From: an uncultured Candidatus Saccharibacteria bacterium
GTDB lineage: Bacteria > Patescibacteriota > Minisyncoccia > Phycocordibacterales > GWA1-40-21
Assembly (NCBI GenBank): GCA_964513515.1
Contig: CAZEMP010000002.1
Span: 82,232-146,231, forward strand
Length of the DNA stretch: 64,000 bases
Direction: 5' to 3'
This document shows positions 35,248 to 63,145 of the stretch, in pieces; position 1 is the first letter of the stretch; each line of letters begins with the position of its first letter. The notes beneath the pieces were generated by a model. It ran no database searches. It was not told the DNA's origin and saw only the letters and a program-made list of their open reading frames with translations. The position numbers and the translations under genes were made by a program.

Positions 35248-35976
35248 TTAGATTTTTCTATAGAGTGTTTGGAATATTTGTTTTTGAAATTCAGCTATTC
35301 TTTTACTCTCAATTATCATACAAGTCTCAGAATTGTAGTCTATAAAAGCTATTTTGTCTCCATATATTATTTCTGTAACGTTATGTTCGAACGGGCCAAA
35401 ATCACCAGGCATTGTCTTAGCAAATCTATCCAGGCTAGGTTTTTTGTGCTGAGCAGTTTGAATATTTGTTATAACCTCTCTTTGAAGTTTCTTTTCATCT
35501 CTCATTTTTCTATAAATCCTCGGAACATATTTATCTTTCTTTTCATTACCATCTTTGTTTGAACTAAATCTATAGAATACGTCATTCTTTTTAAGGCTCC
35601 TGACTACATCGTCAAATATTCTTTTTGTACCATCCCTACCCTCAAGGAATCTTATTTTAGGTTTTTTTTCACTAGTGGAATAAGCATCTTCTAAGTCTGG
35701 TAATATTTCAAAAAAATTTATTTTTAAATCATCAAATAATGTTTCTAATCTGTTTGGTGGTTCTGCCCCGTAAACAACATTTTTTAGTTTTTGTGTTTGG
35801 GTAATAAGTTTTTTTTCTAATAAGGAGGGTAAGGCTTTATACACCAATGGTCTGTGTATTGATGTCTTCTCAGATATTTGGGAAATATTTGATGTACCCA
35901 TCTCAAGAAGAGCCAAATAAATAGCACTTTCATTTTTTGTTAGCCCCAATTTCTCTAAAATATTGTTTTTATCCAT
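35248..35976 (-). CDS. TrmB-family transcriptional regulator (paralog 1)
   Basis: N-terminal wHTH LGLTKNESAIYLALLEMGTSNISQISEKTSIHRPLVYKALPSLLEKKLI. Paralogous to the ORFs at 44286-45029 and 57085-57831. Confidence 0.65.
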   Translation of the reverse strand: MDKNNILEKLGLTKNESAIYLALLEMGTSNISQISEKTSIHRPLVYKALPSLLEKKLITQTQKLKNVVYGAEPPNRLETLFDDLKINFFEILPDLEDAYSTSEKKPKIRFLEGRDGTKRIFDDVVRSLKKNDVFYRFSSNKDGNEKKDKYVPRIYRKMRDEKKLQREVITNIQTAQHKKPSLDRFAKTMPGDFGPFEHNVTEIIYGDKIAFIDYNSETCMIIESKRIAEFQKQIFQTLYRKI

Positions 35977-36270
35977 AATTTATTTAAATTATTGTAATTT
36001 TGTCTTACATAAATAATAAATCATTAATCTAAAAAATGCAATTAAAATAAGCATTTATTCGATCAATTCAGATAATATAAGCAAATCTGTAATAAATAAT
36101 TACGTATTATATTAGCAGGTAACAGCTATAAATATGGACTGTTTAGCTTTTATCTTTATTTGATTACATAAAGACAATAAAAACCAGGCAGTGTCAATAT
36201 AATTAATATATAATGTTCCAGGGTAAAAGATAGAACATTGAAACAAAAATAAACTAGAGAGGGGTGAAAC

Positions 36271-36528
36271 ATGGGGCGGTGCATAAGAATGGCTCAACTT
36301 GTGGTAAGGCGAAGACGTGAGATATCTCTTGATGAAGCAAAATCTCGAGGAGCTAGTCTTGGTAACGGAGTAAAATTACCAAGAACGGTAGCTGAGCTTG
36401 AGAAAAGAAAGCAAAGACACTTTCTACGACTCGAGAGAGCTGGGCTTCAAGTAACTCCTGCGAGCTATGGGATGCTCGCAGTTTGGCAAAGTACTCCACT
36501 CGAACTTAGTCTCATCTGGAGTGGTTGA
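36271..36528 (+). CDS. Hypothetical small basic protein (GC-rich island 1)
   Basis: 85 aa, Arg-rich, about 50% GC. Lies directly upstream of a hammerhead ribozyme. Confidence 0.4.
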   Translation: MGRCIRMAQLVVRRRREISLDEAKSRGASLGNGVKLPRTVAELEKRKQRHFLRLERAGLQVTPASYGMLAVWQSTPLELSLIWSG

Positions 36529-36567
36529 TAAAAGGCCAAGCAGTTTGGGGATCTGCATAAAATCCCC

Positions 36568-36616
36568 TCTGTCTCGCGATGAATCGCGACTGACGAGCTC
36601 AAAAGAGCGAAACAGA
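36568..36616 (+). ncRNA. Type-III hammerhead self-cleaving ribozyme (HHR1)
   Basis: tctgtC | TCGCGAtgaaTCGCGA CTGACGAG CTCaaaaGAG CGAA acaga. The core CUGANGA...GAA is present. Stems I and II are closed and stem III is open. The cleavage site is GUC. Confidence 0.8.
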
Positions 36617-36659
36617 AAGTTCTTTGACAACAAAATATAGGATAATGGAGGATTAAACT

Positions 36660-37277
36660 ATGCATATTCTAGTCATCGAAGACACTGAGAAGCACCTGAA
36701 TGACGCGCGGAAGTACAGCAAAAAGTTGGTTGGTTGTAAGGTGGACTTTGTTACCACACTAACTGAGGCAATGGAACTTCTGAAGAAGAACAAATATGAC
36801 GGAGCCATCTCCGATGTGTTTTTTCCCGCAGAGAAAGGGGCTTCAGCAGAGACGTTCGAGAATGCAATCATTGTCAGCGCCAAGCTGTTTGGGATGGGTG
36901 TGCACCACGTCTTCAACACGACAGGCAACCATCACGGTAGCAAGTACCAAGGGTTTGTCTGGAAGACCCCGAAGAAGTTGAACCACATCGAGGACTCTGA
37001 GGATAGTTGTGGGTACGACTTCAGAATGACTGGGATGATCATCGAGGCGTACCCGAAGGACCCAGAAGGGGACAAGGACACGAAGCAGTGGCAAGCAGCA
37101 TTCCGGTACATCCTGCTCGTGCAAGCTCTACTCCAACTTCCCGATAAGGGCGAGAGGATCATCAAAGATGCTAAGTTGCACGGCTTCCCTTACGGGGAGT
37201 ATGGTTACCTCACCGAGGATTTCGCGAAGTGCTCGCATTCCTTCGTCGCCGAGATCTTCCAGAAGTATAATGCCTGA
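36660..37277 (+). CDS. CheY-like receiver-domain protein of unknown output (GC-rich island 1)
   Basis: MHILVIEDTEKHL...DGAISDVFFP resembles a response-regulator receiver with an acidic pocket. The C-terminal 100 aa are unrecognised. About 52% GC. Confidence 0.45.
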   Translation: MHILVIEDTEKHLNDARKYSKKLVGCKVDFVTTLTEAMELLKKNKYDGAISDVFFPAEKGASAETFENAIIVSAKLFGMGVHHVFNTTGNHHGSKYQGFVWKTPKKLNHIEDSEDSCGYDFRMTGMIIEAYPKDPEGDKDTKQWQAAFRYILLVQALLQLPDKGERIIKDAKLHGFPYGEYGYLTEDFAKCSHSFVAEIFQKYNA

Positions 37278-37311
37278 ATCCGTCTTGTACCTCCGCCACC
37301 AAACGTAAAAT

Positions 37312-37370
37312 GAGTTGATGAGACTGGAGCGGAGTGTTTTCCAGGAGGAAAAACACTCCGCTCCAGAACA
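37312..37370 (+). terminator. Rho-independent terminator closing GC island 1
   Basis: GAGACTGGAGCGGAGTGTTTTCC...GGAAAAACACTCCGCTCCAG, a long perfect hairpin. Confidence 0.6.
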
Positions 37371-37406
37371 TCACAAGTCATCTCACAAAGAGATGGCTTT
37401 TTTATT

Positions 37407-61736: not shown

Positions 61737-61859
61737 CGGGCAAACAGGGTGCCTAACCCTGGTTAATTTCTTAAAACCGAATATCCTTTATAATCCAACA
61801 TCTAGAGTGTGTTGGTAAAAAGAGGAGAATAAGGTTTAAGGAATACAAGGAGGATTGCC

Positions 61860-62231
61860 ATGGACGAAGCACTTAAGTCGCTTCGTGAGTTGCGTGGCGC
61901 GTTTGCCGTCACCTCTGAAAAAGTTGAGGAGCTATTGAGGCTCTGTCAAAAATCAGGGGTGCCTTGTGTCACCGTCTATTCTCCAGCGAGATATGATGGA
62001 TGGTACGAGATGCAACGCGCCTACGTGTTCACTAAGCGCAAAGATGCCCATGAGCACATTTGGTACTTCTCTCCTAATCGCGGTCTATCAGTAATTGGCC
62101 GAGATGGAAAGAATGCGGTGCCATTTGAGCAGTGGGATCCGGAAGCTGATTTGTTCACTGATCAATCGCTTAACGAGGGGGGAACTAACATGAACCCCGT
62201 CGAACGCGAACGGCTCAGTAAGAACAGTTAG
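61860..62231 (+). CDS. Hypothetical protein (HHR-island ORF 5)
   Basis: 123 aa with RBS AAGGAGG. No recognisable domain. Confidence 0.4.
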   Translation: MDEALKSLRELRGAFAVTSEKVEELLRLCQKSGVPCVTVYSPARYDGWYEMQRAYVFTKRKDAHEHIWYFSPNRGLSVIGRDGKNAVPFEQWDPEADLFTDQSLNEGGTNMNPVERERLSKNS

Positions 62232-62267
62232 CATTCTGCGCTGTGAGCACCAGCTCTTTAGGATGCG

Positions 62268-62366
62268 CCTTGTGTGTTAGGCCTGTCGAAAGACAAATCT
62301 GAACACTCTTCACTGATCAAGGTAGAAGTTAACCTAGATCAAGGGGGATTTTATATCTCCCTCTGT
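62268..62366 (+). repeat. Repeat module R of about 100 nt immediately 5-prime of HHR6 (right copy)
   Basis: CCTTGTGTGTTAGGCCTGTCGAAAGACAAATCTGAACACTCTTCACTGATCAAGGTAGAAGTTAACCTAGATCAAGGGGGATTTTATATCTCCCTCTGT. Confidence 0.7.
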
Positions 62367-62411
62367 CTCGAGACGAAGTCTCGACTGATGAGCTCAAAAG
62401 AGCGAAACAGA
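62362..62411 (+). ncRNA. Type-III hammerhead ribozyme (HHR6)
   Basis: tctgtC | TCGAGAcgaagTCTCGA CTGATGAG CTCaaaaGAG CGAA acaga. Confidence 0.85.
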
Positions 62412-62454
62412 AAATATTATTTAAAACTATACAGTAATATAAAAGTTCTAATAA

Positions 62455-62485
62455 AATAAAACCCTCATTTATGAGGGTTTTATTT
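62455..62485. terminator. Bidirectional rho-independent terminator between the HHR island and the sigma-like gene
   Basis: AAAATAAAACCCTCATTTATGAGGGTTTTATTTTATTT. Confidence 0.65.
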
Positions 62486-62488
62486 TAT

Positions 62489-63145
62489 TTAATTATTACT
62501 ATGTTTTGGTTTTTTTATTTCAATTAAACCCATACGTTCAGCTGATCTACGCAATTTCATCATAGCCGCTTCCTCGATATGCCTAATTCTTTCTGTGGAA
62601 AGTTTCATAATACCGGCAATCTCCTGAAGAGTCATTGGTTCCTTATCAGAATCTATACCAAACCTCATTTTAATCACCGCTTGCTGTTGATCATTAAGTT
62701 TATTAATAGCTTGCCCCATTTCTTTCTTAAGAAATAATTTCTCAACATATGCAGCGGGGTTATCTTCTGTAGATGGTGCATCTGCATTTTTTTGTAGTTC
62801 TGTTGTAGAAGTAATATACCAATCAGGTTTCCCATCCGGACCCCAACGTTGTTCATTGTCTTCAAATAAATCTTCTGGTAAAAGACCAAAAAACTTTGCA
62901 AGTTCAACAGCATATTTGTTCCAACCACCATCTTCTGTATATACAGGAATTTTCATATTGATAAGTTGTCCAATTATAGCTTGACTTTGAGGTATACCCA
63001 TCTGTCTGCATAGTTCTGAGACCCTTTCTATTCCGGCCTTTCTCATTTGTTTAAGTATGTTTGGATTTTTACCAATTGATTTTGATTCAATATTTACTAT
63101 ATCATCTAAAATTACATCAGACGTATTATGTTCTATTCCTTTCAT
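62489..63145 (-). CDS. Sigma-70 family region 3/4-containing protein lacking recognisable region 2 (atypical sigma or anti-sigma-like)
   Basis: C-terminal QAVIKMRFGI...MTLQEIAGIMKLSTERIRHIEEAAMMKLRR is a typical region-4 HTH. The N-terminal 130 aa are not recognisable. Codon usage is native and AT-rich. Confidence 0.55.
   Translation of the reverse strand: MKGIEHNTSDVILDDIVNIESKSIGKNPNILKQMRKAGIERVSELCRQMGIPQSQAIIGQLINMKIPVYTEDGGWNKYAVELAKFFGLLPEDLFEDNEQRWGPDGKPDWYITSTTELQKNADAPSTEDNPAAYVEKLFLKKEMGQAINKLNDQQQAVIKMRFGIDSDKEPMTLQEIAGIMKLSTERIRHIEEAAMMKLRRSAERMGLIEIKKPKHSNN

Follow-up and report, generated by a model that had tools for sequence, protein, structure and literature searches.

In 2011, bacterial prophage-like regions were reported to contain clusters of hammerhead ribozymes that flank single genes, with their function left open (Perreault et al. 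2011, PLoS Comput Biol, PMC3088659); such hammerheads cleave in vitro and in E. coli (PMC3088659). Direct repeats that bear hammerheads represent a geometry yielding unit-length RNAs with ligatable ends (PMC7761336). Here, a 64-kb stretch of contig CAZEMP010000002.1 (hereafter the window) from a bacterium of the candidate phyla radiation (CPR) was analyzed computationally. The window has an overall GC content of 34%; eight scattered tRNAs (Rfam, ARAGORN) and a gene for a sigma-70 region 4 protein (62489-63145) mark it as bacterial. The named homologs of its proteins belong to Kaiserbacteria, Magasanikbacteria, Taylorbacteria, Paceibacterota or the 'Patescibacteria group', which assigns its source to CPR/Patescibacteria. 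It contains two GC-rich islets of small genes with hammerheads, each adjoining a gene for a regulator of the TrmB family. With a probability of roughly 60%, these are chromosomal TrmB-anchored hammerhead cassette loci, in which a resident TrmB controls the promoter of a ribozyme-cut polycistronic transcript whose cargo genes are exchanged. Clustered hammerheads flanking single genes are already known; what appears to be new is the CPR host, the systematic link to TrmB, a conserved control region with a structured element (X), and the turnover of cassettes at a fixed anchor. In the open-access full-text literature, no paper was found that links hammerheads with TrmB or with CPR/Patescibacteria.

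Hammerhead ribozymes and TrmB genes

The regulators, which share a winged helix-turn-helix (wHTH) domain, and the hammerhead ribozymes (HHR0 to HHR5) of the window are the following (aa, amino acids; GC3, GC content at third codon positions):

35248-35976, minus strand: TrmB paralog 1 (TrmB1), 242 aa; Pfam PF01978 E 3.5e-14; GC3 0.24; divergent from islet 1
44286-45029, minus strand: TrmB paralog 2, 247 aa; PF01978 E 1.2e-13; divergent from an aminotransferase/methyltransferase pair; no hammerhead link
57085-57831, plus strand: TrmB paralog 3 (TrmB3), 248 aa; PF01978 E 9.1e-15; head of the tandem-type module
36566-36618, plus strand: HHR0, core CUGACGAG; RF00008 40.5 bits, E 1.3e-6; predicted cleavage after C36573
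58820-58885, plus strand: HHR1, with a long stem II; RF00008 32.6 bits, E 3e-4; predicted cleavage after A58827
59672-59725, plus strand: HHR2; RF00008 44.4 bits, E 1.4e-7; predicted cleavage after C59679
60403-60456, plus strand: HHR3; RF00008 37.0 bits, E 1.8e-5; predicted cleavage after A60410
about 61211-61264, plus strand: HHR4, core intact; RF00008 24.9 bits, E 0.049; predicted cleavage after C61217
62360-62413, plus strand: HHR5; RF00008 42.2 bits, E 6e-7; predicted cleavage after C62367

A first-pass annotation, made from the sequence alone, had placed three TrmB-type wHTH genes at these positions and hammerheads in two GC-rich islets, and both observations were confirmed. The core pattern CTGANGAG-N(4-34)-CGAAAC occurred six times in the window, always on the plus strand, compared with 0.01 occurrences expected from shuffled sequences. 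The type III model RF00008, which was built mainly from viroid and eukaryotic sequences, aligned with all six copies end to end (E 1e-7 to 0.05). Each copy kept the catalytic core C3-U4-G5-A6-N7-G8-A9 ... G12-A13-A14 as CUGA(U/C)GAG...CGAAAC, with GUC as the cleavage site in four copies and GUA in two. Stem I has 6-7 bp and a loop, stem II has 4 bp closed by AAAA (or is longer), and stem III is short and open. Since clustered bacterial hammerheads of the same design cleave (PMC3088659), self-cleavage of the window hammerheads is inferred. A search of the islets, of X and of an islet in locus L013 for other ribozyme classes and RAGATH motifs gave chance-level matches only (RAGATH-23, 16.9 bits).

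In order to find related loci, Joint Genome Institute (JGI) metagenome contigs were scanned for exact matches to a 26-nt core common to three of the window hammerheads. The scan yielded 98 loci (579 kb; loci are denoted by L and a number), which were dereplicated to 74 clusters; 27 of the 74 have at least two hammerheads, and all hammerheads of any one locus lie on one strand. The metagenome loci contributed 109 distinct hammerheads of the same lineage. Over the 108 that were parsed, position H17 was C in 69, U in 25, A in 14 and G in none. Each of the six positions of stem I showed 4-6 pair types; as pairing was required for parsing this stem, the diversity of its pairs counts as support, and the percentage paired does not. 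Some compensatory variation was seen in stem II. Loop I is mostly (A/G)UGUGUA and loop II AAAA, and a hairpin with an A-rich loop abuts stem III on its upstream side.

The lineage has a further conserved motif downstream of the core. The box [GA]TTCYTT, usually GTTCTTTRAAA and termed GTTCYTT box here, followed CGAAAC within 18 nt in 49 of 117 instances, with about 1.5 expected by chance, and began 3-6 nt past CGAAAC in 45 of these 49. It is found in the window at 36615, 58887, 59335, 60540, 61263 and 62455. The box also lies 5' of cargo open reading frames (ORFs) that have no hammerhead (in L003, L009 and L013, and at 59335 and 60540 of the window) as well as inside X; it may be bound by a protein or an RNase, or play a part in translation.

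The position of TrmB genes relative to the hammerheads was determined with a hidden Markov model (HMM) of the TrmB family. Clusters were counted on a given side if their sequence extended there for 2 kb or more. Upstream of the first hammerhead, a TrmB ORF was present at a distance of up to 2.5 kb in 17 of 28 clusters; downstream of the last one, the corresponding count was 2 of 36 (Fisher p=2.6e-6). The HMM derives from six sequences, and if divergent members escape it, the upstream fraction is an underestimate; most loci were ascertained via one hammerhead sequence variant, and short contigs limit the denominators. The associated TrmB genes were in tandem with the hammerheads in 12 cases and divergent in 10, and they represent several distinct TrmB subfamilies. 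Searches that started from cargo proteins gave a similar picture: the 179 kb fetched in this way, together with the window, held seven TrmB ORFs, of which six abut a cargo gene or an islet. For example, a TrmB gene stands immediately and divergently upstream of a homolog of the islet-1 cargo protein RR205 in L003 (Kaiserbacteria), L009 (Magasanikbacteria) and L022, in otherwise unrelated neighbourhoods. The cargo ORF f of islet 2 has only seven homologs; of these, the homolog on a long contig, L013, is part of a small-ORF islet, with an 18-22% GC spacer between the islet and a divergent TrmB gene.

TrmB-like regulators could be so abundant in these genomes that their adjacency to hammerheads is coincidental. 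The density of TrmB genes, with three in a 28-kb part of the window and four to five in 18.7 kb of L121, and the absence of a hammerhead neighbour from one of the three window genes would fit this explanation. However, the upstream and downstream counts come from the same loci, which thereby serve as their own control, and away from islets only one TrmB ORF was present in 179 kb. Coincidence is therefore extremely improbable. Thus, the TrmB-hammerhead association is real, directional and evolutionarily conserved. The first-pass annotation had named ancient host genes with unrelated neighbours in relatives as evidence that would speak against a link between regulator and ribozyme-bearing cargo; in the relatives, a conserved TrmB-hammerhead layout was found instead, and three of four TrmB3 orthologs found via the protein alone have a hammerhead islet.

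In L121, whose source is closely related to the window organism, the four to five TrmB-domain genes lie at 1279-14383. One of them (13616-14383, minus strand) is divergent from a run of small ORFs with 50-54% GC, in which the hammerhead pattern does not occur. Each genome seems to have numerous TrmB-headed islets.

The three window proteins scored 51-55 bits with the PF01978 wHTH model (cut-off 25.6). Their pairwise identity is 24-33%, so they are old paralogs and not recent copies; a recent duplication of one mobile head gene was ruled out by this identity and by their separate orthogroups. Pfam gave no match beyond the wHTH domain in any of the three, and the TrmB sugar-binding C-terminal domain was not detected. 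The NCBIfam equivalog models for TrmB, TrmBL1 and TrmBL2 scored 17-46 bits, far below their cut-offs of 500-650, and a sequence search with TrmB3 against the Protein Data Bank (PDB) gave no match. The AlphaFold model of TrmB3 (mean predicted local distance difference test, pLDDT, 89) comprises the wHTH domain, a 34-residue helix and an alpha/beta domain. Foldseek identified the archaeal chromatin protein TrmBL2 (5BPD/5BOX, E 2e-11) as its best full-length PDB match and also matched TrmB (3QPH, E 4e-9), with alignments of about 260-270 columns and template-modelling scores of about 0.35-0.40, since the domain orientation differs. Judged by its DNA-binding domain and modelled fold, TrmB3 is a member of the TrmB family and not an ortholog of any characterised protein. 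At E<1e-5, its well-conserved Patescibacteria family numbers 477 proteins, with identities of 53-83% for many members.

The structural match to TrmBL2, the undetected sugar-binding domain and the foreign-looking composition of the adjoining cargo would also be expected if these proteins were TrmBL2-type chromatin or silencing proteins that coat deviant acquired DNA, rather than ligand-responsive local regulators. Several very divergent paralogs that each head one specific locus with conserved promoter geometry are more typical of dedicated local regulators, and paralog 2 faces ordinary metabolic genes, namely the aminotransferase/methyltransferase pair, which has host composition. A general silencing role is thus considered improbable.

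Probable resident regulators and turnover of cargo

The islets contain the following elements besides the hammerheads:

36271-36528, plus strand: cargo ORF orf85, 85 aa; no homologs found; putative coding status; GC3 0.31
36660-37277, plus strand: cargo gene RR205, 205 aa; divergent stand-alone protein of predicted receiver (REC) fold; GC3 0.67
37324-37399, plus strand: terminal hairpins and intrinsic terminator of islet 1
58722-58826, plus strand: R element copy 1, a conserved structured motif abutting HHR1
59410-59622, plus strand: cargo ORF b, 70 aa; Shine-Dalgarno sequence; no family found
59861-60172, plus strand: cargo ORF c, 103 aa; Cys-rich, possibly a zinc ribbon
60560-60800, plus strand: RNA B, a conserved non-coding element 5' of ORF d; no Rfam match
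60895-61116, plus strand: cargo ORF d, 73 aa; homologs in L013 (65%) and L060 (48%)
61416-61736, plus strand: cargo ORF e, 106 aa; three distant relatives only among 1.84 billion representative proteins
61860-62231, plus strand: cargo ORF f, 123 aa; family of eight proteins
62263-62366, plus strand: R element copy 2, directly 5' of HHR5
62450-62489, plus strand: intrinsic terminator of islet 2, with an 18-bp stem followed by a T run

Islet 1 has a single hammerhead between the 85-aa and the 205-aa ORF; the five same-strand hammerheads of islet 2 delimit four units of 0.7-1.15 kb. A plausible promoter region lies on the 5' side of each islet and an intrinsic terminator on its 3' side, and most cargo ORFs are preceded by strong Shine-Dalgarno sequences. 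With 48% GC in islet 1 (36271-37400) and 46% in islet 2 (58571-62450), both are clearly above the window average. GC3 was 0.45-0.67 in seven of eight cargo ORFs, the exception being orf85, compared with 0.16-0.27 in the flanking genes (about 30% GC). The three TrmB genes, with 29-31% GC and GC3 of 0.20-0.24, follow host-like codon usage, and the three TrmB-side spacers are AT-rich (23%, 27% and 15% GC). Thus, the islet cargo is compositionally foreign-looking compared with the host-like TrmB genes. In the related loci, too, TrmB ORFs lie 5-13 GC points below their own islets. Repeated influx from a common pool or selection for RNA structure may account for the GC-richness of islets in hosts of 29-50% GC.

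Comparison of orthologous loci separated the history of the regulators from that of the cargo. First, four TrmB3 orthologs were found via the protein alone. Three of them (L123, 76% identity; L125, 68%; L126, 56%) are followed on the 3' side by an AT-rich spacer and a GC-rich, hammerhead-bearing islet, with X confirmed in L123 and L126. The fourth (L121, 81%), which is partly syntenic with 47.3-52.4 kb of the window, has neither X nor islet; nucleotide homology stops at 57837, six bases past the stop codon, and a periplasmic-binding-protein gene follows. Second, the locus of a TrmB1 ortholog (L096, 77%) has the layout of islet 1 with spacer, small ORF, hammerhead, ORF and terminator, but its cargo ORFs (48 and 103 aa) are unrelated to those of the window, and nucleotide homology ends 27 nt past the TrmB1 start codon. 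Third, RR205 homologs that are 53-68% identical adjoin TrmB proteins only 19-25% identical to one another. Cargo families also recur in different combinations, with homologs of ORF c inside four other hammerhead arrays (L051, L038, L030 and L047), ORF d in two other loci, and receiver-fold proteins of at least two families. Since TrmB composition is host-like, orthologous TrmB genes have unrelated cargo or none, and homologous cargo stands beside unrelated TrmB genes, the simplest reading of these sequences is a resident TrmB anchor at which the cargo alone is exchanged.

The first-pass annotation had offered two interpretations, TrmB as the conserved head of a mobile module and TrmB as a regulator of the cargo. 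In the former case, regulator and cargo would form one mobile element that moves as a unit. The differing gene neighbourhoods of the TrmB3 orthologs (window, L121, L123, L125 and L126) and the foreign composition of the cargo agree with this, as do a tyrosine recombinase beside the TrmB-response regulator pair in L003 and an rve transposase beside the response regulator gene in L006-L008. However, the recombinase of L003 lies in a conserved S15/PNPase neighbourhood that is also present in L123 and L125 and looks like a housekeeping Xer-type gene, and neither integrase, transposase nor flanking target-site repeats are present in the window islets. The host-like GC and GC3 of the TrmB genes and the reassortment of cargo among anchors fit a mobile head gene poorly, and L121 suggests an empty site that has retained its TrmB. 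Movement of the whole unit is thus unlikely, and control of cargo expression by TrmB is the better reading, judging from position, orientation and conserved promoter architecture.

RR205 belongs to a CPR-only family of 43 proteins, in which residues E7, D8, D52, T87 and K142 are invariant. It scored 21.8 bits with Pfam Response_reg (cut-off 30.2), its AlphaFold model (pLDDT 90.6) matched REC-domain folds with E 3e-4 to 5e-3, and an output domain is absent. For the other cargo ORFs, no Pfam or PHROG family was found, PHROG matches being negligible. The L013 homolog of ORF f lies in a GC-rich, hammerhead-free islet. RNA B is 77-80% identical to L013 (1439-1683), which is above the identity of the flanking coding sequence, and its core CGGGGUAYGAUGRUUCCUCG(R)AAGG, which resembles a degenerate hammerhead core, is also present in L060 (at about 3395). 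As a widespread motif, RNA B was rejected, since it is present in three loci only. The R element (about 100 nt, in the order GUGUUAGGCC-hairpin-AAAUCUGAACAC...ACUGAUCAAGG) lies immediately 5' of some hammerheads; it occurs twice in L112 (about 47-123 and 626-727), and its inner hairpin shows compensatory changes between copies. R element and hammerhead together make up a terminal direct repeat of islet 2 (58722-58850 versus 62263-62392; 131 nt, 88.5% identical, 3541 nt apart).

Small orphan proteins, a weak match of RR205 to phrog_731 (E 8e-5), and the precedent of multiple hammerheads flanking single genes in prophage regions, one with marR nearby (Perreault et al. 2011, PMC3088659), are what would be expected of prophage remnants or phage-derived early operons with TrmB as a phage-type repressor. 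Against such an origin, no phage structural, replication or integrase genes are present in or beside either islet, the exact hammerhead core had no match in 2.9 million viral contigs, where the RR205 family was not found either, and TrmB3 belongs to a large Patescibacteria family of host composition. A phage origin is accordingly judged quite improbable, somewhat more so than a silencing role or a mobile head gene.

Several neighbouring features were also noted. An ORF f homolog (59% identity) is encoded on a 3.6-kb contig with 63% GC (L016), which suggests that cargo families also occur in much GC-richer genomes or elements, a possible source pool. A third compositionally foreign gene (38151-38756, plus strand; 201 aa, GTG start, 49% GC, GC3 0.57) with a weak SLT-domain match lies about 750 nt 3' of islet 1, behind a P-loop gene of host composition and with no hammerhead nearby. 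The stretch at 58940-59330, between HHR1 and ORF b (about 390 nt, about 49% GC), has many hairpins and no convincing ORF; only its first 45 nt or so match other loci (L099 and L050), and it may be a structured RNA cassette. The gene at 62489-63145 (minus strand) is convergent with islet 2, and the two have one terminator hairpin in common. It encodes a 218-aa protein with sigma-70 region 4 as its sole domain (Pfam E 1e-15) and a weak NCBIfam match to the anti-phage MzaA sigma factor.

Control regions and proposed mode of expression

The control regions of the two islets were delimited as follows:

35977-36270: spacer 1, AT-rich (23% GC), with the presumed promoters for TrmB1 and islet 1
57842-58142, minus strand: element X, a predicted structured RNA of about 300 nt, GC-rich (47%), between paralog 3 and the AT-rich spacer
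57845-57876: bidirectional terminator hairpin, common to TrmB3 and X
58143-58570: spacer 2, AT-rich (27% GC), with the candidate islet promoter at 58416-58443
58177-58150, minus strand: X promoter, TTGACA-16-TATCAT with extended -10 (TG), 11/12 match

This anatomy differs in part from the layout given in the first-pass annotation. The AT-rich spacers were found as described, but the order of regulator, terminator and islet holds in tandem for paralog 3 only; paralog 1 is divergent from its islet, with no terminator between them. Likewise, paralog 2 does adjoin the aminotransferase/methyltransferase pair, although the pair does not follow it but is divergently transcribed from a joint spacer. 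Behind paralog 3, the tandem arrangement and the terminator stood, while the GC-rich X, which had not been described, intervenes before the spacer.

At TrmB3-type loci, the order is constant: TrmB and terminator, X, AT-rich spacer and islet. X is present in at least 13 of them (window, L030, L032, L039, L051, L053, L059, L060, L084, L098, L099, L123 and L126) and occupies the place held by the TrmB gene itself in divergent-type loci. It carries two mini-ORFs of 3-5 codons each on the scheme Shine-Dalgarno-AUG-NNN-GAY-(0-2 codons)-stop. In the window, AUG-CAC-GAC-UAG (MHD-stop) and AUG-AAC-GAC-UAG (MND-stop) each follow a Shine-Dalgarno sequence; elsewhere, MGD-stop, MSD-stop and MGDK-stop occur. 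The hairpin separating the mini-ORFs covaries, its sequence differing between loci with the pairing kept, and the fold of the window X has z = -6.2 versus shuffled sequences. No match of X was found in Rfam, and a transfer-messenger RNA or other known RNA at 57840-58130 was rejected, as ARAGORN and Rfam were both negative.

The promoters of type-3 loci are conserved in geometry. The X promoter reads TTGACA-N16/17-TATACT in orthologous loci, and an islet promoter TTGACA-N17-TATACT is present in 13 of 14. In the window, the candidate islet-2 promoter is followed, ahead of the first ribosome-binding site, by an imperfect inverted repeat of 83 nt (58470-58552, 78% complementary) that forms a long leader hairpin. 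A TGTCA-N8-TGACA palindrome lies over the islet -35 element in 5 of the 14 loci, with two more copies near the X promoter, and is the best operator candidate. The most enriched hexamer in the operator search, TGTCAA/TTGACA, also equals the -35 consensus. For spacer 1, promoter scoring gave no consensus sigma-70 promoter; it has in common with the L096 spacer the arrangement ..TGTCAATA..-N11-12-TATA(A/T)(A/T)T.

A wHTH gene at the head of an operon, or divergent from it, usually regulates the adjacent promoter. Since this is the usual role of a wHTH gene in such a position, regulation of the adjacent promoter or promoters by TrmB is inferred. The proposed course of expression is as follows. First, a wHTH protein of the TrmB/TrmBL2 type would be encoded at the head of the AT-rich promoter region; its gene is divergent in type 1 (paralog 1) and stands in tandem in type 3 (paralog 3), there with the divergently transcribed X in between. 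Its most likely action would be to repress or activate the promoter of the islet, and that of its own gene as well in the divergent type. Second, a sigma-70-type promoter would give rise to one polycistronic transcript through the run of GC-rich small genes. Third, the type III hammerheads between the genes would cut this transcript during synthesis, in islet 2 into pieces of 852, 731, 807 and 1150 nt. Each downstream piece would start with a 5'-OH and carry the folded ribozyme (plus the GTTCYTT box where present) as a cap-like structure at its 5' end, and each upstream piece would end in a hairpin and a 2',3'-cyclic phosphate. In this way, every cassette may obtain a defined, context-independent 5' untranslated region and a stability of its own, like a natural ribozyme insulator. 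The cassettes (receiver-fold, Cys-rich and orphan small proteins as well as structured RNAs) would be drawn from a common GC-richer pool, and exchange between loci could plausibly occur via recombination at the near-identical sequences of ribozymes and their flanks.

A bolder variant would treat the hammerheads themselves as the cassette boundaries of an integrase-less, integron-like system, in which released RNAs, with 5'-OH and 2',3'-cyclic phosphate ends, are ligated (e.g., by RtcB) into circles or to one another and re-inserted behind the TrmB-controlled promoter, by reverse transcription or by recombination at ribozyme/GTTCYTT junctions, with X and TrmB as the control unit. It would fit the hammerhead-bearing repeat of islet 2, the shuffling of cargo between unrelated anchors and the spread of a near-identical 26-nt ribozyme core over hosts of about 29-56% GC, none of which demonstrates it, and it is deemed improbable. 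If true, it would amount to an RNA-defined gene-cassette exchange network across CPR bacteria.

Several observations weigh against TrmB-anchored, ribozyme-cut cassette loci as the explanation. With regard to the ribozymes, stem III has only 4-5 bp, and none of the six copies reaches the Rfam gathering score (24.9-44.4 versus 48.5 bits), which is why a scan of the whole window at this threshold gave tRNAs only and the hammerheads surfaced in E-value mode. Homologous GC-rich islets in L003, L009 and L013 have no hammerhead, so the ribozyme is not obligatory. With regard to the association, about 40% of the clusters with enough upstream sequence had no TrmB match, and most TrmB3-type loci were found via the hammerhead itself, only four independently via the protein. 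With regard to the cargo, no homolog was found for three of the eight ORFs, and the raised GC of the islets could stem from RNA-structure selection instead of foreign origin. Finally, with regard to regulation, no operator common to all hammerhead-associated TrmB subfamilies was found, and the motif ATATGGCTATAAATA, taken by the first-pass annotation as a signature of the TrmB spacers, turned out to be generic. It is enriched in AT-rich segments (6 matches versus 0.7 expected), but its three exact copies (7848, 24023 and 24897) lie away from TrmB genes, and the TrmB spacers hold only permuted copies or copies with 2-3 mismatches, e.g., with two mismatches at 58377-58391 (minus strand). As it also resembles an extended -10 promoter element, it was rejected as a specific TrmB operator. 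Related copies recur in the spacers of several orthologous loci, and a general promoter or architectural role for ATATGGCTATAAATA is possible.

Away from the islets, one exact ATATGGCTATAAATA copy lies in an AT-rich spacer adjoining a GC-rich segment at 24590-24900 with a possible minus-strand ORF of about 60 aa. Next to it, the region of a UPF0102 gene (23935-24489) shows homology to the surroundings of the L123 ortholog of TrmB3, and the segment may be a relic or second copy of a TrmB-type control region. At 25408-25675 (plus strand), a perfect TTGACA-17-TATAAT promoter precedes about 230 nt of GC-richer sequence that has no ORF, includes GTTCTTTTTAAA and ends in a terminator hairpin; it is a candidate small RNA, with no Rfam match at the gathering threshold. 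Two repeats complete the list. An internally palindromic 75-nt repeat (42073-42147 and 48809-48883; 92% identical, arms GGGAATGACA ... TGTCATTCCC) lies 5' of two plus-strand genes and is similar in type to repetitive extragenic palindromic elements or miniature inverted-repeat transposable elements (REP/MITE), and an intergenic 115-nt direct repeat (51884-51998 and 54896-55010) is 83% identical, with its copies 3 kb apart.

Comparison with known systems

The role of bacterial hammerheads has been open since 2011, and the loci provide a defined and recurrent genetic context for them: a dedicated TrmB regulator, a bidirectional promoter region, a partner RNA (X) and a one-directional array of exchangeable, compositionally foreign small genes, each with a ribozyme before it. 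This context predicts regulated transcription, defined cleavage sites and insulated expression of cassettes. It suggests that CPR bacteria, whose genomes are tiny and for which few regulatory or accessory-gene systems are known, have a family of variable loci. The loci are also a source of natural ribozyme-insulator parts and of candidate RNA motifs, namely X, R, RNA B and the GTTCYTT box.

On the side of the regulator, the window proteins have the PF01978 wHTH domain, the long coiled-coil helix and the alpha/beta C-terminal domain in common with archaeal TrmB and TrmBL2 (PDB 3QPH, 5BPD and 5BOX), whose genes are likewise typically placed beside the operon under control. They differ in being bacterial, about 250 aa long and 13-16% identical to the solved proteins, in addition to the sugar-binding subdomain that was not detected.

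With regard to the ribozymes, the RiboJ synthetic insulators, which Lou et al. reportedly presented in Nat Biotechnol in 2012, are engineered parts. As is proposed for the window, a ribozyme just upstream of the coding unit removes variable RNA and leaves a standard structured 5' end, which makes expression units modular; a natural insulating role of the window hammerheads is suggested by their anatomy.

Integron arrays, like the islets, combine a fixed platform and promoter with one-directional, small, often orphan, compositionally deviant and exchangeable genes and a repeated structured element between them. In contrast to integrons, the head gene is a TrmB wHTH gene, with no IntI or other recombinase at the window loci, and the repeat between cassettes is an RNA ribozyme and not attC; the GTTCYTT box does not fit the attC core GTTRRRY. 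Lacking IntI and attC, the loci are not integrons.

Islet 2 resembles retrozymes and other hammerhead-bounded circular-RNA elements (PMC7761336) in that a 3.5-kb unit is bounded by direct repeats, each with a type III hammerhead. Unlike these, it is coding (at least five ORFs with Shine-Dalgarno sequences and homologs), has internal hammerheads as well as a bacterial promoter and terminator, and has no reverse transcriptase gene nearby. Because of its coding content and the missing reverse transcriptase, it is not a retrozyme.

A close precedent is provided by the hammerhead clusters of Perreault et al. (PMC3088659). As in the islets, same-strand hammerheads lie between small genes of one transcript with variable gene content, the role proposed for them is the processing of polycistronic RNA into gene-length pieces, and one example includes a marR wHTH gene. 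Since phage genes are absent from the islets and the scans of viral contigs were negative, the loci described here are not prophages; they lie on a CPR/Patescibacteria chromosome, with no phage genes or integrase in or beside them. They are further distinguished from the earlier clusters by the directional link to TrmB, the conserved bidirectional promoter region, the X RNA, the strong GC contrast between islet and host, and the turnover of cargo at the anchor.

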